Assembly: GCA_963825505.1 (NCBI GenBank)
Contig: CAWGTL010000008.1
Location: 48,411 to 112,410 of the forward strand
Direction of reading: 5' to 3'
DNA length: 64,000 nucleotides
Origin: an uncultured Actinomycetota bacterium
GTDB lineage: Bacteria; Actinomycetota; Actinomycetes; Actinomycetales; CAWJMD01
Shown: in pieces, positions 42,301 to 64,000 of the stretch
Numbering within the stretch: position 1 is the first letter of the stretch
Layout of the letters: each line of letters starts with the position of its first letter
Position numbers and translations under genes: made by a program
Notes under the pieces: model-generated
Told to the model about the DNA's origin: nothing
Databases searched by the model: none
The model's input: the letters and a program-made list of their open reading frames with translations, nothing else

Positions 42301-43578
42301 ATGTTCCAGGAGGTCGACGCCGCGCTCGTCGCGCTGATCAAGGACGAGGCGATCGGGGACGCCGACGTCGCGATCGCCCTCGACGTCCCCAACCGCCCGT
42401 GGTTCGCCGCGGTGCAGGGCCTCACCGTGAACGTGTTCCTGTACGACGTGCGCGAGAACGTCGCCCGGCGTGACGTGATGTACGAGCCGGTGCTCGACGA
42501 GACCGGCCGGATCGTCGGACGCCGTGCGCCGGCGATGAGGTACGACCTGTACTACCTGCTGTCGGTGTGGGGGACGACCGATCCGGCGCTGGAGCACCAG
42601 GTGATGGCGGCGCTGCTCGTGGGGCTCGGCCGGCACGACGTGTTCCCGGAGGCGCGGGTGCCGGAGCAGCACCGCGAGCTGGGGTTGTGGCACCTGTCGG
42701 TCGCCAGCGGCGGCAAGCGGATGATGCCGGGCAACTTCGGCGGCGAGATGAAGCTGCAGGCCGAGGTGTCGGTCACGGTCCCGCTGCCGCCGCGGATCCC
42801 GCTGTCGGTCGGGCCGCCCGTCGACCGCCCGATGGACATCCGGATGGCCGGCGCCGGCGGCCAGCGCGAGCAGGTGCAGGGACGCCCGCCCGCTCCCGGC
42901 GACCCGAGGGCCGCTGGGGCGCAGCCGGGTCAGCGGCCGGGCCAGCAGCCCGGCCAGCAGGTCCCTCGGCAGGGCGGACCGGTCGACCCCGCGCGCCAGC
43001 GGGAGCAGCTCGCCCAGGCCGTCGCCCGCGGTGCCGCAGGTCCGCCGGGCGCAGGGCGCCCGCCGGGCGCAGGAGGTCCGCCGCAGGGTCAGCGGCCGGG
43101 GCAGCCTGGCGCCGGCGGTCCGGCTCGACCGGCCGACCCGATGGCCGTGCTGCGCAACGCGCTCGCCCAGGCGGCCCAGGCCCAGGCCGCGCTCGCCCAG
43201 GCCCAGGCCCTGGTCGCGACGGCGATGAGCCGCCCCGCCGGACCGCCTGGCGAGGGCCAGCGCCCACCCGGGCAGCAGGGCCAGCGCCCACCCGGCCAGC
43301 AGGCTCAGCCGCCGCAGGGTCAGCCGCCGCAGGGTCAGCCGCCGCAGGGTCAGCCGCCGCAGGGTCAGGCAGCACCGCCCCGCCCTGCCGAGCAGCCGGT
43401 GGCCGAGCAGCCGGTGGCCGAGCAGCGGGCGGTGGGAGAGGCGGTGGCCGAGCAGGCGGTGGCCGAGCAGCCCGTCGCCGAGCAGCCGGCGCCACCGAGG
43501 TCCACGCCGCAGAGGCCCGCGCGCCGGGCACCGCGGCGTGCTGCACCGCCGACGGGCGGCGACGGCACGCCGGAGTGA
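42301..43578 (+). CDS. DUF4255 (Pvc16/Afp16 N-terminal domain) CIS cap/tail-terminator-like protein with a long Pro/Gln/Gly-rich repeat extension
   Basis: The N-terminal ~190 aa (MFQEVDAALVALIKDE...LTVNVFLYDVRENVARRD...RYDLYYLLSVWG) match the DUF4255 pattern. The remaining ~235 aa are low-complexity with tandem QPPQG and AEQPV units. An alternative GTG start lies at 42295. Confidence 0.8.
   Translation: MFQEVDAALVALIKDEAIGDADVAIALDVPNRPWFAAVQGLTVNVFLYDVRENVARRDVMYEPVLDETGRIVGRRAPAMRYDLYYLLSVWGTTDPALEHQVMAALLVGLGRHDVFPEARVPEQHRELGLWHLSVASGGKRMMPGNFGGEMKLQAEVSVTVPLPPRIPLSVGPPVDRPMDIRMAGAGGQREQVQGRPPAPGDPRAAGAQPGQRPGQQPGQQVPRQGGPVDPARQREQLAQAVARGAAGPPGAGRPPGAGGPPQGQRPGQPGAGGPARPADPMAVLRNALAQAAQAQAALAQAQALVATAMSRPAGPPGEGQRPPGQQGQRPPGQQAQPPQGQPPQGQPPQGQPPQGQAAPPRPAEQPVAEQPVAEQRAVGEAVAEQAVAEQPVAEQPAPPRSTPQRPARRAPRRAAPPTGGDGTPE
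43306..43365 (+). repeat. perfect 4 x 15-nt tandem repeat (CAGCCGCCGCAGGGT) inside the DUF4255 gene
   Basis: Read directly from the sequence. It encodes (QPPQG)x4. Confidence 0.9.
43387..43491 (+). repeat. degenerate 7 x 15-nt tandem repeat (GCCGAGCAGCCGGTG consensus) inside the DUF4255 gene
   Basis: Read directly from the sequence. It encodes AEQPV/AEQAV units. Confidence 0.8.
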
Positions 43579-43582
43579 GCCC

Positions 43583-45043
43583 TCAGCGTCCGGGCAGGGG
43601 TTCGACCTCGACGACCTGGCGGGTGCCGAGCGGTGAGGTCCATTCGTGGGCGGTGACGGTGCGGGTGTCGTCAGTGAGCGTGCGGCAGTGCCAGAGGGCG
43701 GCGGTCTTGTAGCGGTGGCACCGGCGCGATCTGGGCGACAGGTTCGGAACCGAGGTGGGTCCGCGTGGGTGGGGGATGGTGTGGTCGAGGTCGCAGCGTG
43801 AGGTGGGGACGGCGCAACCGGGGAAGGTGCAGACGGGGTCGCGCGCGGCGACGAAGTCCGCGATCTCGACCGTGGGCGTGTACGCGTCCGCGTGGTGCCG
43901 CGGCTCCGGGTGCTTCTGCCGTGCTCGGCGGGTGACGTCGAGCAGAGTGCTTCTGGTCCAACCCTTCCCAGGTGCCTGTCCGATGCGAAGCAGCCGGGTG
44001 AGGTGGCCGCAGGTGTCGGTGAGCAGGACGCAGGTCGACGCACCGCGGTCCAGTGCCTGGCCGGCGACGACGCGGGCGACGGCGGCGGTGACCGGTACCG
44101 GTGTCCCGTTGCCGCGGACCTCACCGGTGCTGTGGCTCGCGGGGTCCTCGCTGGTCAGGGTGTCCAGCGTGATGACGACGCCGATCTCACGCTGCACCCG
44201 ACCTCCGGCCCTGCCGCCATCACCGCCCAGACCGTTGGAATCAGTGCCGTCGTCGCAGACGGCGTCGAAGAGCAGGTCGAGCTCGGCCATGCCGCGGGTC
44301 CGCCCGCCCAGCTCGTCACGGGTCAGACCGCGGCTGAAGGCGTCCAGGCCGGCGGCGACCGTCAGGACCAGCTCGGTCGGTCCGGTGACCGTCATCGTGG
44401 ACAGGGTCGGATTCTCCGGGTGCGTCCAGGTCTGGATCCCGGTCCGCTCCCGCACCTCGCGGCGGACGTGGTCCTCGACGTCGGTGCGGGCCTTCGCCAC
44501 CGCGGTCTTCACCCGGCGGGTGAACGCGGCCGGTGTCGGGCCGCCCCACGGCCCGACGCGATCGGTCCCGTCCAACGGCAGCGCCGGTAACCCGTCCAGC
44601 ACGGTCGCCTCGACCTTGCGCGCCTGCCGATCGGTCAGCCCGGCGGTCTCCTCGGCCAGCACCCGCGCCCGCCGGGCATCGACCCGACCCGCCGCCAACG
44701 CCCCCAGCGTCGCCGTCAGCACCGTGCACAACGCCCGAGCGACCACCACGTCGCGCTCGGCCTCGAACTGCGACGACCCGGTCGCCGCCGCGACCTCCGC
44801 CGCGGCCAGGACATCGAGGTCGTGCTCGGTGATCCGCCCGCACCCCAACGCGTCAGCCCGCGAGCCCTCCCCGATCCGCCACCCCTCCTGCGCGTGTACC
44901 AGCCGCGTGATCATCCACATCCGCCGCAGGTGCTCGGCCTGGTGGGTGAACCCGGCCAGGGAGTGCGCCCGCAGGCCCGCGACCAGCGCCGCACCGCGCC
45001 CGTCCGACCCGTGCTGCTCCGACCCTCGATCCCCCGACCTCAT
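43583..45043 (-). CDS. DUF222 / HNH endonuclease protein (REP13E12-type, often regarded as a selfish or mobile gene)
   Basis: 486 aa. The C-terminal HNH region is CTFPGCAVPTSRCDLDHTIPHPRGPTSVPNLSPRSRRCHRYKT. The N-terminal DUF222-like region includes LDVLAAAEVAAATG... It lies tail-to-tail with the DUF4255 gene with a 4-nt gap. Confidence 0.85.
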   Translation of the reverse strand: MRSGDRGSEQHGSDGRGAALVAGLRAHSLAGFTHQAEHLRRMWMITRLVHAQEGWRIGEGSRADALGCGRITEHDLDVLAAAEVAAATGSSQFEAERDVVVARALCTVLTATLGALAAGRVDARRARVLAEETAGLTDRQARKVEATVLDGLPALPLDGTDRVGPWGGPTPAAFTRRVKTAVAKARTDVEDHVRREVRERTGIQTWTHPENPTLSTMTVTGPTELVLTVAAGLDAFSRGLTRDELGGRTRGMAELDLLFDAVCDDGTDSNGLGGDGGRAGGRVQREIGVVITLDTLTSEDPASHSTGEVRGNGTPVPVTAAVARVVAGQALDRGASTCVLLTDTCGHLTRLLRIGQAPGKGWTRSTLLDVTRRARQKHPEPRHHADAYTPTVEIADFVAARDPVCTFPGCAVPTSRCDLDHTIPHPRGPTSVPNLSPRSRRCHRYKTAALWHCRTLTDDTRTVTAHEWTSPLGTRQVVEVEPLPGR

Positions 45044-63073: not shown

Positions 63074-63660
63074 TGCCCGAGCTGCCCACCGCCGTCCCGC
63101 TGGCGGCCGGCCTCCCGCGGGTGCTCGCCGAGGACGACTACGCAGGCCGCTTCACCGGCGCCCTCGACACCGTGCTCGCCGCCGCCGTGGGGTCCTACGA
63201 CAACCTCACCGCCTACCTCGATCCCGCGACCGCACCCGACGACTTCCTCGCCTGGCTCGGCCACTGGGTCGCGGTGCCGCCCGACGAGATGGGTGCCGCC
63301 GAGCGGACGGCGGCGCTGCGCGCGTTCGTGCCCGTGGCCGCCGACCTCGGCGCCCGGCGCGGGACGGCCACGGCGCTGGCGGACGAGCTGGGTCGCCTCT
63401 GCGGCGTCGACGTCGCCGTGCGGGACCCGGGCGGCGTGAGCTGGTCGGCCTCCGCCGGTCAGGCTGCGGGCACCTCGGCCGGGAGCGGCCGCGGGAGCGT
63501 CGAGGTCGTCGTGCGCGGCGCCTGCGACCGGGCGCTCGTGCGCCGGCTCGTGCGCCGCTCGACCCCCGCCCACCTCGACGTCCGCGTCACCTTCGACGAC
63601 CGCGCAGCCCGCCACACAGCCCGCCACACAGCCCGCCACCCAGTCCGACCAGGAGGAGAC
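63061..63660 (+). CDS. phage tail protein, P2 gpI-like (TIGR02242-type wedge component); 3' end unresolved because there is no in-frame stop
   Basis: LPRVLAEDDYAGRFTGALDTVLAAAVGSYDNLTAYLDPATAPDDFLAWLGHWVAV...STPAHLDVRVTF is present. Start at the GTG at 63061 or 63073. The frame runs on without a stop into the next ORF. The +1 frame ends with TGA at 63662-63664, overlapping the next GTG. Confidence 0.7.
63605..63640 (+). repeat. 3 x 12-nt tandem repeat (CAGCCCGCCACA)
   Basis: Read directly from the sequence. It encodes ARHT units in the gpI frame or QPAT units in the +1 frame. Confidence 0.8.
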
Positions 63661-64000
63661 GTGAGCACCACCATCACCTGCACCGCGTGCGGCGGTGCGA
63701 ACTCGCCGGAGGACACCTTCTGCGGCTCCTGCAGCGCCTTCCTGGAGTGGGACGGCGCGCCGGCGCAGGAGCAGGAGCAGCCGGTGCCCGTCGGCGCCGC
63801 CGTGGGAGCGGCGACGGACCCCGACCCGGAGCACCGGCTGCCGCAGACCGAGGCCCGCCGTCCGGCACCCCGACGGTCCGCGGGCGAGGGCCCGACCGAC
63901 CTGTTCTGCGGCTCGTGCGGAGCGGGCAACGCGCTCGGCCGCTCGTTCTGCCGGCGCTGCGGGGAGGCGCTGGCCGACCCCGAGGAGCCGGAGCGCCCGG
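63661..64000 (+). CDS. zinc-ribbon domain protein, N-terminal part (continues beyond the window)
   Basis: GTG at 63661 preceded by AGGAGG with a 4-nt spacer. Two CxxC...CxxC ribbons are present (CTACGG..FCGSCSAF and FCGSCGAG..FCRRCGEA). No stop before position 64000. Confidence 0.5.
   Translation, partial: MSTTITCTACGGANSPEDTFCGSCSAFLEWDGAPAQEQEQPVPVGAAVGAATDPDPEHRLPQTEARRPAPRRSAGEGPTDLFCGSCGAGNALGRSFCRRCGEALADPEEPERP

Follow-up and report, generated by a model that had tools for sequence, protein, structure and literature searches.

A probable Streptomyces-type contractile injection system in an uncultured actinobacterium, from a small branch whose clusters lack a helper ATPase near the sheath gene

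The contractile injection systems (CIS) of Streptomyces are phage-tail-like "nano-syringes" used for stress-induced cell death. In S. coelicolor the CIS ATPase is dispensable for particle formation and needed for the cell-death phenotype (PMC10020575). The gene directly following the last wedge gene encodes Sco4242, in which a Cys-rich Zn-binding region and a transmembrane (TM) segment are combined with a C-terminal domain that binds carbohydrate (PMC10020575, PMC10066040, PMC12237407). Sco4242 was first named a 'putative fiber' by Vladimirov et al. The topology of CisA, the Streptomyces membrane adaptor, has been shown experimentally, with its N-terminus in and its C-terminus out.

We analysed a stretch of 64,000 nucleotides (the window) from an uncultured high-GC actinobacterium; loci used for comparison carry L numbers. 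The region very likely encodes a Streptomyces-type CIS resembling dbeCIS subtype IId. The locus is a variant of a known CIS type and belongs to a small branch in which the helper ATPase is missing from the vicinity of the sheath gene. Because of the base composition (70-77% GC, uniform), genes were called from GC3 and frame plots, and families were assigned by scans of Pfam, NCBIfam, PHROG and PDB. In profile searches, all 13 components named in an earlier sequence-only reading were present at their coordinates and matched their expected families (Table 1). The gene run on one strand passes from the sheath through inner tube, chaperone-like protein, DUF6760, tape-measure-position protein, second tube/adaptor, initiator, VgrG, PAAR, gp25 and baseplate-J to Cis12. 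Stop and start codons overlap at most junctions of this run, and the ATGA, GTGA and TGATG overlaps described earlier were confirmed. The claim of one coupled operon failed at two gaps: the sheath gene is preceded by 163 nt that contain a strong hairpin, and the second tube gene by 47 nt. Co-directionality held for the CIS genes but not for five minus-strand genes at 43583-47564.

Table 1. Coordinates of CIS components and neighbouring features in the window.
Feature	Position	Strand	Evidence
Cap/tail-terminator (Cis16/Afp16-like, Pvc16_N)	42295..43578	+	Pfam PF14065, E 1.8e-18, aa 6-129
Intervening non-CIS block	43583..51509	mixed	Frame plots, Pfam, PHROG HNH match
HNH/DUF222	43583-45043	-	Pfam, PHROG HNH
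PNPOx-like	45118-45531	-	Frame plot, Pfam
DoxX-like	45675-46223	-	Frame plot, Pfam
Flavodoxin	46384-46896	-	Frame plot, Pfam
NarL/LuxR response regulator	46905-47564	-	Frame plot, Pfam
Tandem USP	47703-48623	+	Frame plot, Pfam
GAF histidine kinase	48643-50277	+	Frame plot, Pfam
Acetyl-CoA hydrolase/transferase	50274-51509	+	Frame plot, Pfam
Acidic helical repeat protein 1, 142 aa	51621..52049	+	46% identity to acidic protein 2 (paralogue; alignment)
Acidic helical repeat protein 2, 142 aa	52167..52595	+	Homologue search, alignment, gene order
52-aa ORF, GTGA overlap with acidic protein 2	52592..52750	+	Partner conserved in L003, L004, L016, L052
GC-rich hairpin, 14-bp stem in fold, perfect 11-bp core	52803..52834	+	In 163-nt gap before sheath gene
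Sheath (Cis2)	52914..54467	+	Pfam Phage_sheath_1, Phage_sheath_1C
Inner tube (Cis1a)	54477..54917	+	T4_gp19 PF06841, E 2e-32
Tail-assembly-chaperone-like protein, 136 aa	54917..55327	+	phrog_508 'tail assembly chaperone', E 1.7e-4
DUF6760 small protein	55324..55479	+	PF20546, E 4e-11
Pro/Ala-rich tape-measure-position protein	55483..57418	+	Frameshifted in window; 644 aa minus one base near 56250
Second tube-family protein (Cis1b/Afp5-like adaptor)	57466..57918	+	T4_gp19 PF06841, E 3e-24
Tube initiator (Cis7/Afp7-like), LysM-like C-terminus	57918..58598	+	CIS_tube PF19266, E 5e-19
VgrG-like spike (Cis8), single ORF	58591..60318	+	Phage_base_V, E 1e-27; NF033848 VgrG_rel, E 9e-176, full length
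PAAR tip (Cis10), 130 aa	60335..60727	+	PF05488, E 2e-9
gp25-like wedge/sheath initiator (Cis9)	60720..61133	+	GPW_gp25 PF04965, E 1e-21
Baseplate-J wedge (Cis11)	61133..63073	+	PF04865; TIGR02243, E 2e-145
Cis12-like wedge, ~196 aa	63073..63664	+	Tail_P2_I; TIGR02242, aa 14-115
CisA-like gene start	63661..64000, runs off window end	+	SD AGGAGGAG then GTG at 63661; Zn-ribbon Pfam matches

Six components had their top solved-structure matches among S. coelicolor/venezuelae CIS chains in PDB: the sheath (8bky/9gtp, E 1e-194; 8bl4/9gts, E 7e-191; full length), Cis11 (9gtp_1K, E 4e-212, full length), Cis7 (9gtp_P, E 3e-29, aa 19-214), the cap Cis16 (9gts_0A, E 4.6e-23, aa 3-209), Cis1b (9gtp_a, E 8e-20) and Cis12 (9gtp_E, 190 aa, E 1e-19). 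Cis1b also matched TIGR02241 and, weakly, CIS5_fam. The LysM assignment of the tube initiator stood in part: its S. coelicolor counterpart 9gtp_P is labelled 'LysM domain-containing protein', but Pfam finds no LysM in the initiator even at E 0.1. The gene order recurs in the Streptomyces loci L020-L026, down to the chaperone-like protein (67-70% identity), the DUF6760 gene and the long DRER-motif ORF. The chaperone-like protein, for which Pfam, NCBIfam and PDB gave no match, ranks among the best conserved in the cluster, at 52-90% identity over all relatives and 59-90% in actinobacterial and closest loci. The inner tube is 61-96% identical inside the clade and 23-40% outside it. The VgrG-like ORF carries no toxin extension and the PAAR protein, identical on L001 and L002, no extension; no effector was identified in the locus, in line with the earlier statement that the window contains no recognisable toxin.

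A long Pro/Ala-rich gene does occupy the tape-measure position (TMP), as had been described, but in the window its 1936 nt are split between two frames, with the switch at about 56250. At this point L001 has one base fewer than the window, giving the intact ORF, and L002 one base more; in L054 the ORF is intact at 642 aa. The frameshift is probably an assembly indel. Nearly all relatives, Streptomyces included, have an ORF of 650-1370 aa here with the shared C-terminal motif LYxRLRxxLxxELxxDRERxGxL, and the protein matched no Pfam, NCBIfam or PHROG family.

The gpI-like frame reported from 63061 onward likewise proved to have the expected Tail_P2_I/TIGR02242 match but to consist of two genes, Cis12 and a second one from 63661. 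As given, Cis12 reads through in frame into the CisA-like gene; allowing for a 1-nt frame error near 63600, it ends in SDQEET at the TGA of 63662-63664. Indels at 63601-63605 distinguish all three near-identical assemblies, and local GC3 is higher in frame +1 (0.89) than in the fusion frame (0.60). L051, L055/L056, L057 and L059 encode Cis12 separately, with a 4-nt overlap, and none of 45 CisA-like homologues (258-601 aa; the closest 346-390 aa) has a Tail_P2_I domain. The CisA-like protein (347 aa in L002; NF047619, E 3e-23) has two Zn ribbons, a basic linker and one predicted TM helix, before which lies an Arg-rich segment; it also has an NADase-type glycan-binding (discoidin-like) domain, which like the helix is encoded past the window end. 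Its gene also lies directly 3' of cis12 in CIS clusters of Kitasatospora (L058) and Acidimicrobiales (L059). Judged from these predicted domains, the protein has the position and architecture of CisA; homology to Sco4242 rests on architecture, position and the Kitasatospora intermediate, without direct alignment. The window holds no fibres, as had been stated, but the accompanying statement that it has no receptor-binding gene needs qualifying, since a CisA-like glycan-binding gene does begin in it. A small GerE regulator after the CisA-like gene is the last gene of the cluster.

The cap gene is part of the same CIS, parted from the rest by about 8 kb of unrelated redox/stress genes. The C-terminal tail of the cap (~220 aa, Pro/Gln/Gly/Ala-rich) is encoded by 15-nt tandem repeats, and extended caps (290-349 aa) also occur in clade relatives. 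The "unusual split arrangement" noted earlier is real: the window shares it with L001 and L054, which makes at least three assemblies, but it is a lineage-specific insertion or rearrangement and not a feature of the machine, since close relatives keep cap, acidic protein, small ORF and sheath contiguous, short-read contigs included. L004, L005, L006, L007, L042 and L052 have no such intervening block between cap and sheath; L016 carries the same gene set inverted upstream of the cap gene. Further insertions occur in relatives at the boundary between the TMP and second tube genes.

No AAA+ ATPase of the Afp15 type had been seen in the window, and our searches agree: 17 diverse Cis15 queries, run against the window and 314 kb of clade loci, produced no significant match (none better than E 0.05). 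A Cis15-type ATPase is absent within 10 kb of the sheath gene in nine distinct clusters of the clade (the window lineage, L003-L007, L016, L042 and L052; L003 covers 3.3 kb upstream), which are monophyletic on a neighbour-joining sheath tree (no bootstrap). In the sister clades, by contrast, the ATPase adjoins the cap gene: in eight ATPase-positive relatives that showed both genes, it lies just downstream of the cap. Directly in front of the sheath gene, the ATPase-less clade has a different pair of genes, encoding an acidic helical repeat protein and its ~52-aa partner. Since the ATPase is required for the S. coelicolor cell-death phenotype and none was found here, the system may operate in another way or rely on a gene located elsewhere.

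Every part of the locus has contractile-tail homologues, and the chaperone-like and TMP genes are present, as they would be in the tail module of a prophage or phage-derived element. Such an origin is nevertheless hardly credible. Neither the 64 kb nor the adjoining 6.7 kb yielded fibre, capsid, terminase, integrase or lysis genes, in agreement with the sequence-only reading; coverage included the other 42 kb of the window (Pfam scans of ten genes, translations of the remainder inspected by eye) and the downstream 6.7 kb, read from contigs L001 and L002 (99.5-99.8% identical). Head, packaging and tRNA features were likewise not found in this range, the flanks hold rhamnose catabolism and regulatory genes, composition is uniform, the Pvc16_N cap is a CIS marker, and the sheath is 34% identical to its best phage match vs. 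57% to Streptomyces CIS. The family scans, the matches to the solved S. coelicolor CIS and the sequence beyond the window bear out a fibre-less, Streptomyces-like CIS rather than a prophage. A decaying, non-functional remnant would account for the missing ATPase, the displaced cap with an HNH/DUF222 gene abutting it, and the two frame breaks (TMP and cis12 read-through), but is very unlikely. Both breaks sit where the three near-identical long-read assemblies mutually disagree, each of these has its own frameshifts in other genes, and the ORFs are intact in other assemblies. The full gene set is kept across the clade, and core genes are under purifying selection: compared with the closest relative, their dN/dS ranges from 0.07 to 0.46 and does not exceed 0.26 for sheath, first tube, VgrG, PAAR and baseplate-J, values like those of flanking housekeeping genes.

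That the system is canonical and complete, with the Cis15-type ATPase and any effectors encoded elsewhere in a further split locus, is a serious possibility. eCIS loci spread over two genomic locations have been reported, with more than 85% of loci having all eight core types (Chen et al. 2019); this cluster tolerates insertions and rearrangements, and the function of the ATPase in S. coelicolor also speaks for its presence. Against this stand the searches above and the position of the ATPase by the cap in relatives, and relocation in the whole clade would need to be ancient and stable. A particle freed by lysis that binds other cells, as an extracellular CIS or tailocin, would find its receptor-binding 'fibre' in the discoidin-like domain, consistent with the first naming of Sco4242, and a missing ATPase together with a TMP gene and chaperone resembles phage tails and R-type bacteriocins. 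We regard this as unlikely: the domain lies beyond the predicted TM helix and Arg-rich segment, the topology of CisA, fibre and lysis genes are lacking over the range searched, and the Streptomyces relatives are cytoplasmic.

By analogy with Streptomyces, we infer that the Streptomyces-type CIS favoured here lies in the cytoplasm, docks to the membrane and takes part in cell death. Assembly would proceed in the cytoplasm as in phage tails, beginning with hub, spike and TMP protein with chaperones, followed by wedges, then tube and sheath, and finally the cap. Docking and firing would follow S. coelicolor: the CisA-like protein would hold the particle, baseplate first, against the inside of the cytoplasmic membrane, where stress would trigger it. 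Candidates for the cargo, which would be loaded without an ATPase if there is truly none, are the acidic proteins and the TMP protein.

Acidic protein 1 gave no Pfam or NCBIfam match and weak PHROG tape-measure matches (E 5e-4). Acidic protein 2 had 19 homologues, exclusively in MAGs or metagenomes, with a conserved ~95-aa N-terminal domain and a variable count of 11-aa repeats; its AF2 model is all-helical at low confidence (pLDDT 43), and dN/dS against L003 is 0.24. By tblastn and gene calls, the acidic protein adjoins the sheath gene in L003, L004, L006, L016, L042 and L052, and L007 has at this site a 198-aa acidic-looking ORF unmatched by tblastn. Acidic protein 2 is a candidate cargo or accessory protein, specific to the clade and placed between cap and sheath in relatives. 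The 52-aa ORF matched no Pfam, NCBIfam or PHROG family; in relatives it overlaps the acidic protein gene by 4 nt, or 1 nt in L016. The RNA fold of 52748-52916 reached -80.9 kcal/mol (z = -2.8; equalled by none of 200 shuffles), and its hairpin is possibly a module boundary, attenuator or RNA stabiliser. Hairpins of differing sequence occur at the same place in L003, L004 and L016.

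Judged by its sequence, the cluster is a Streptomyces-type contractile injection system (CIS) of an uncultured actinobacterial lineage, a new variant of a known machine. The main interpretation of the sequence-only reading, a fibre-less CIS of this type, was right and the finding is real. For six components the best match among solved structures was a Streptomyces CIS cryo-EM model: the sheath (E 1e-194, full length), Cis11 (E 4e-212), Cis7 ('LysM domain-containing protein', E 3e-29), the cap Cis16 (E 5e-23), Cis1b (E 8e-20), and Cis12 (E 1e-19). When one genome per species was scanned, 48 related loci emerged. 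Sheath identity was highest to uncultured Actinomycetota MAGs (77-90%), reached 68% in Sporichthyaceae, and was approximately 57% in Streptomyces. Comparison of gene orders confirmed that the order from sheath to baseplate is identical in the window and in Streptomyces. Nearly all relatives carry a long ORF (650-1370 aa) in the tape-measure position (TMP) with a common C-terminal motif, LYxRLRxxLxxELxxDRERxGxL. Gene order, structure matches, and the conserved long ORF therefore make the cluster a member of the Streptomyces-type group, which published work places in dbeCIS subtype IId (PMC10066040). The IId traits found in the window are a sheath that groups with Streptomyces Cis2, one VgrG ORF, one afp11 copy, and no afp13 fibre.

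Genes were called from third-position GC and frame plots; raw ORF lists were swamped by spurious frames because the GC content of the window is uniformly 70-77%. The components originally listed form one plus-strand series from 52914 to the window end: sheath, tube, a 136-aa protein, DUF6760, a Pro/Ala-rich gene, second tube, CIS_tube, VgrG, PAAR, gp25, baseplate-J, and Tail_P2_I. Components gave significant Pfam or NCBIfam matches to the families named for them, with the exception of the 136-aa protein, whose sole match was the PHROG 'tail assembly chaperone' (E 1.7e-4), and the Pro/Ala-rich TMP gene, which matched no family in Pfam, NCBIfam, or PHROG. The proposed LysM tube initiator (Afp7) matched PF19266 and structure 9gtp_P (E 3e-29), but not the Pfam LysM model itself. 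The core types Afp8 (spike), Afp9 (gp25), and Afp11 (baseplate-J) were all present by profile matches, and Afp11 by a PDB match as well.

Features of the CIS cluster and its surroundings in the window
Feature	Position	Strand	Description
Rhamnose uptake/catabolism operon	30280-42218	as cap	complete; ends 76 nt ahead of cap gene
Cap, Pvc16_N terminator (Afp16)	42295-43578		9.3 kb upstream of sheath gene
Tandem repeats in cap low-complexity tail	42900-43578		in frame, 15-nt units (PQGQP, AEQPV)
HNH/DUF222 gene	43583-45043	minus	ends 4 nt past cap stop codon; weak DUF222 match
Genes between cap and sheath operon		minus	HNH/DUF222, PNPOx-like, DoxX-like, flavodoxin, NarL-type response regulator
Genes between cap and sheath operon		plus	tandem USP, GAF histidine kinase, acetyl-CoA hydrolase
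DosR-like module	46905-51509
Acidic proteins	51621-52049 and 52167-52595		paralogous, 142 aa each
Tandem repeats in acidic proteins	51880-52034 and 52424-52580		33-nt units
Small partner ORF	52592-52750		52 aa, coupled to second acidic gene
GC-rich hairpin	52803-52834		14-bp stem in fold; between 52-aa ORF and sheath gene
Sheath (Afp2/3/4)	52914-54467	plus	PF04984 + PF17482; PDB E 1e-194
Tube proteins (Afp1/5)	54477-54917 and 57466-57918	plus	both PF06841; PDB 9gtp_a
TMP-position gene	55483-57418	plus	1936 nt; frame switch at ~56250
Wedge gene cis12	63073-63664	plus	Tail_P2_I
CisA-like gene	from 63661	plus	347 aa in L002; two zinc ribbons, Arg-rich linker, one predicted TM helix, glycan-binding domain

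The overlapping junctions noted earlier were borne out (TGATG, GTGA, and also 8-nt overlaps). A single translationally coupled operon, as had been proposed, is not what they amount to: the second tube gene (tube2) is preceded by a 47-nt gap, and the sheath gene by one of 163 nt that holds a strong hairpin. Given these gaps and the insertions seen in relatives, the cluster is therefore a set of modules. The RNA fold of 52748-52916 had an energy of -80.9 kcal/mol (z = -2.8), and hairpins with other sequences occupy the equivalent place in the related loci L003, L004, and L016. The hairpin could be a terminator, an attenuator, or an RNA-stabilising element parting two expression modules. Sigma-70 promoter and terminator scans gave nothing useful. 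The TMP/tube2 boundary is an insertion hot spot in relatives, with a two-component system and an MMPL-like transporter (by eye from N-terminal sequence) in L004 (12972-18726), a 213-aa gene, aminoglycoside phosphotransferase-like by eye, in L003 (7929-8567), and a 224-aa minus-strand gene in L052 (15269-15943). DUF6760 lies in the -1 frame relative to the chaperone-like gene with a 4-nt overlap, and a programmed -1 frameshift (like P2 E/E' or lambda G/GT) was considered. It was rejected as a conserved feature; the junction has no canonical slippery heptamer, and the two genes are 30-40 nt apart in L008, L009, and L011.

The cluster is not a prophage, and its gene content does not fit an R-type tailocin. 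Two ENA metagenome contigs, L001 and L002, are 99.5-99.8% identical to the window and extend 6.7 kb past it; neither in the window nor in these 6.7 kb were head, packaging, integrase, lysis, or tail-fibre genes found, in agreement with the earlier statement that phage genes are lacking. The best phage sheath among 50,697 phage records was 34% identical, and the window sheath matches CIS sheaths (E 1e-194) far better than those of pyocins (E 8e-17). The cluster resembles R-type pyocins and the phage P2 tail in the absence of an ATPase and in the chaperone-like and TMP-position genes between tube and baseplate, and the wedge stoichiometry of S. coelicolor (2x J + 1x I) equals that of pyocin R2. 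In contrast to these tails, it has a Pvc16_N cap and neither fibres nor a lysis cassette. Nor is it a classical T6SS: its sheath consists of one phage-type protein, and the family scans detected no TssB/TssC two-part sheath, TssJLM, or ClpV. The 42 kb upstream of the cluster hold ordinary chromosomal functions (MalT-type regulator, SpoIIE phosphatase, ABC-F protein, type III PKS, GH65, rhamnose operon), and tRNA and Rfam scans yielded no tRNA and no Rfam match. The rhamnose operon comprises an ABC transporter, alpha-L-rhamnosidase, isomerase, aldolase/dehydrogenase, kinase, and FMN-dependent dehydrogenase, of which the last was assigned by Pfam and the others by eye from translations. Read-through transcription from this operon into the cap gene is conceivable.

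The locus had been described as co-directional over 21.7 kb and unusually split. It is not co-directional: minus-strand genes lie inside it, and approximately 8 kb are unrelated to CIS. The split recurs in L003 (90% sheath identity) and L054, so it is genuine rather than an assembly chimera, but it is a trivial insertion of little biological weight. The unsplit order of cap, acidic protein, small ORF, and sheath was observed in L004, L006, L007, L016, L042, and the short-read contigs L052/L053 (the middle gene of L007 is a 198-aa acidic-looking ORF unmatched by tblastn), and in L005 the cap is directly beside the sheath gene. By this comparison of gene orders, the split is a recent, lineage-specific rearrangement. 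An insertion signature of the 8-kb block was sought and rejected: no flanking direct or inverted repeats were found, and the layout of L016, where the same stress-gene set lies inverted just upstream of the cap gene, is not convertible by one inversion. The HNH/DUF222 gene is absent from the other loci compared, except L054 of the same lineage. Such REP13E12-like genes are often mobile, and this one may be a trace of the splitting rearrangement. A DosR-like module (NarL response regulator, tandem USP, GAF histidine kinase, acetyl-CoA hydrolase, PNPOx, DoxX) adjoins the CIS in differing orientations in three related genomes, those of the window, L016 (1426-7299), and L003 (2-2301), and is absent in more distant clade members. 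Its position may reflect shared ancestry or a regulatory link to redox/hypoxia stress.

More notable than the split are the clade-wide absence of the Cis15 AAA+ ATPase near the sheath gene, a clade-specific acidic gene pair, and an overlooked CisA-like gene. With Streptomyces Cis15 as query, most relatives yielded a homologue upstream of their sheath gene, and the ATPase gene was just downstream of the cap gene in eight of eight loci where both were seen. No Cis15 homologue was found in the 64 kb of the window, as stated earlier, and the query found nothing in L001/L002, L003-L007, L016, and L042. Seventeen diverse Cis15 queries, run against 314 kb of loci that included L051-L054, reached E 0.05 at best. 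In a neighbour-joining tree of sheaths, built without bootstrap, the window forms one clade with L003, L004, L016, L005, L006, and L007. In all of these the ATPase is missing within 10 kb of the sheath gene; their sister clades have it. An ATPase in the locus (Afp15) is the only one of the eight subunit types on the dbeCIS core list (Chen et al. 2019, PMC6899500) that the window lacks. It counts among eight core types found in over 85% of loci (PMC6899500), has been described as 'invariably' encoded in eCIS loci (PMC10020575), and has been used to distinguish CIS and phage tails (PMC12210884).

Directly upstream of the sheath gene lie two very acidic paralogues and the small ORF. Only 19 homologues of the acidic family were detectable, every one from a MAG or a metagenome. 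Members consist of a conserved N-terminal domain of ~95 aa followed by a variable number of 11-aa repeats (0 to about 7 copies of the unit among homologues). An AF2 model from an 18-sequence alignment was all helices at a pLDDT of 43, and matches to PHROG tape-measure families were weak (E ~4e-4). Sle1-type cargo proteins of Actinobacteria are likewise helix-rich, tape-measure-related, and encoded just upstream of sheath genes, as in the Streptomyces lividans SLP with its Sle1/Sle2 cargo (PMC13277306). Unlike Sle1/Sle2, the acidic proteins have no DUF4157 (Sle2-type) partner and no predicted TM hairpins, and are much smaller and very acidic. The similarity is weak and may reflect low-complexity composition, and we regard the acidic proteins as candidates only for cargo or accessory functions.

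The sequence-only reading ended with a gpI-like wedge protein from 63061 onward. The Tail_P2_I wedge gene is correct, but a second gene starting at 63661 was overlooked. In the window and L002 the Tail_P2_I gene runs in frame into a Zn-ribbon protein, and indels at 63601-63605 differ among all three near-identical assemblies. A Cis12-CisA fusion protein was rejected on several grounds. Just downstream of the indels lie a strong AGGAGGAG Shine-Dalgarno sequence and a GTG at 63661; the +1 frame near 63600 reads ...PATQPATQPATQSDQEET, followed by a TGA overlapping this GTG, and local GC3 is 0.89 in the +1 frame vs 0.60 in the fusion frame. None of 45 homologues of the Zn-ribbon part (the closest are 346-390 aa) contains a Tail_P2_I domain, and cis12 and its neighbour are distinct genes that overlap by 4 nt in five assemblies (L051, the short-read L055/L056, L057, and L059). 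Cis12 of L051 ends ...DQEET; that of S. coelicolor has 190 aa. At the frame switch of the TMP gene, L001 has one base fewer than the window, giving an intact 644-aa ORF, and L002 one base more; the corresponding ORF of L054 has 642 aa. Assembly indels would most likely account for both frame breaks. Nearly all differences among the window and its near-identical ENA relatives (L001, L002, and L051) are single-base indels and G/C substitutions, and each contig has frameshifts of its own (kinase fused to hydrolase in L001, VgrG split in L002). Such noise is typical of long-read assemblies where GC is high, and gene models need care.

The C-terminus of the CisA-like protein is an NADase-type glycan-binding (discoidin-like) domain (NF047619, E 3e-23 for the L002 copy), and homologues occupy the same slot after cis12 in a Kitasatospora and an Acidimicrobiales cluster. 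Sco4242, the CisA of S. coelicolor, has a Cys-rich, probably Zn-binding region just before its TM segment and a carbohydrate-related C-terminal domain, and its gene directly follows the last wedge gene (Vladimirov et al.; PMC10020575). CisA is bitopic with a cytoplasmic N-terminus and is needed for CIS firing and function (Casu et al.). By architecture and synteny we read the 63661 gene as a putative CisA equivalent, and from this reading we infer, by analogy, an intracellular, membrane-docked mode of action. Cytoplasmic particles mediating stress-induced cell death are established for Streptomyces only.

In S. coelicolor the ATPase is dispensable for particle formation and needed for the phenotype (PMC10020575), and a Cis15 ATPase encoded elsewhere in the genome of the window, outside the loci in which the queries found none, is quite possible, if not the outcome we expect. 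Relative to the closest relative, dN/dS was 0.07 for the tube, 0.08 for PAAR, 0.16 for baseplate-J, 0.17 for VgrG, 0.19 for the sheath, 0.24 for the acidic protein, 0.26 for Cis12, and 0.34-0.46 for gp25, Cis7, and the second tube protein; two flanking genes, GAF kinase and acetyl-CoA hydrolase, gave 0.25-0.36. The core-gene range of 0.07-0.46 argues against a decaying remnant. A more far-reaching proposal, tentative and in its entirety rather unlikely, is that a monophyletic Streptomyces-type branch has dispensed with the Cis15 ATPase altogether. The clade-specific acidic helical repeat protein with its variable 11-aa repeats and the ~52-aa partner, between cap and sheath genes, would then be an ATPase-independent cargo or a loading/assembly factor, and the CisA-like glycan-binding protein would hold the particle at the membrane. 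In the genome of the window and two relatives, linkage to the DosR-like GAF-kinase/NarL/USP module could put firing under redox/hypoxia control.

To our knowledge, experimental work on fibre-less Gram-positive CIS comes from Streptomyces only. With all structural genes, a CisA-type adaptor, and a regulator under purifying selection, and the ATPase missing within 10 kb of the sheath gene, the clade offers a natural comparison for the role of the conserved ATPase and the loading of cargo. Should the ATPase prove absent genome-wide, the clade would show what the ATPase is for, and the acidic repeat proteins would be a pointer to an alternative loading or cargo system. Our interest in the locus is moderate and would rise in that case. 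Pipelines that demand Cis15 to tell CIS from phage tails would throw this clade out.

Like the CIS of S. coelicolor and S. venezuelae (CIS-Sc, sco4242-sco4260; PDB 8bky, 8bl4, 9gtp, 9gts), the cluster has the sheath-to-Cis12 order, a single-ORF VgrG spike, a single-copy baseplate-J, no fibre, the chaperone-like protein, DUF6760, the long ORF with the DRER C-terminal motif, a predicted bitopic Zn-binding/TM/carbohydrate-binding protein after cis12, and a GerE-type regulator. Unlike them, it has no Cis15 ATPase beside the cap gene and no Sco4256-4258-type TM effectors, its inner tube is only ~34% identical, the regulator is 3'-terminal, an acidic helical repeat protein and a ~52-aa ORF precede the sheath gene, the cap protein ends in a long low-complexity tail, and the cap gene is displaced by 8 kb. 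PAAR is present in the window and S. venezuelae but absent in S. coelicolor. With the Afp/PVC extracellular CIS (Serratia, Photorhabdus; subtype Ia) the window shares a core of tube, sheath, Afp5, Afp7-Afp11, and an Afp16-type cap, whereas it has one sheath gene in place of three, a short Cis12, a putative membrane adaptor in place of fibres, and no Afp13 fibre, Afp15 ATPase, or toxin genes. Membrane-anchored intracellular CIS (cyanobacterial tCIS, Amoebophilus T6SSiv) would share its mode, cytoplasmic assembly and fibre-less attachment of the baseplate to the membrane, but belong to another clade and use other anchoring proteins; in the window the CisA-like gene is the one indication of anchoring.

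Past the window end, L001 and L002 run through the remainder of the cluster and a 72-aa GerE regulator to a CHAT/TPR gene on the minus strand and then to genes for an S8 peptidase, a 154-aa protein, and an ECF sigma factor. A relative whose sheath is 77% identical shares this order with the window lineage (L001 14383-19821 and L057 11084-16579; GerE, CHAT/TPR minus, S8 peptidase plus, 154-aa protein minus, ECF sigma minus). An NlpC/P60-type gene comes next in L057 (16758-17564, Pfam-supported) and L002 (14386-14919, a 178-aa ORF, NlpC/P60-like by eye). ECF sigma homologues were also seen near the CIS clusters of L009, L010, L021, L023, and L042. The conserved downstream genes may belong to the regulation or function of the system; PADLOC, run on the accessory and downstream genes, returned a generic subtilase match only. 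L042 (CAVWRF010000004.1) is labelled 'Candidatus Melainabacteria', yet has 71.5% GC and an actinobacterial CIS cluster of the ATPase-less type, and is probably mis-binned or mis-classified. In L059/L060 (1-1858), an Acidimicrobiales relative, the TMP-position protein carries an eCIS_core (DUF4157) domain, which links this gene position to known CIS effector-type proteins.
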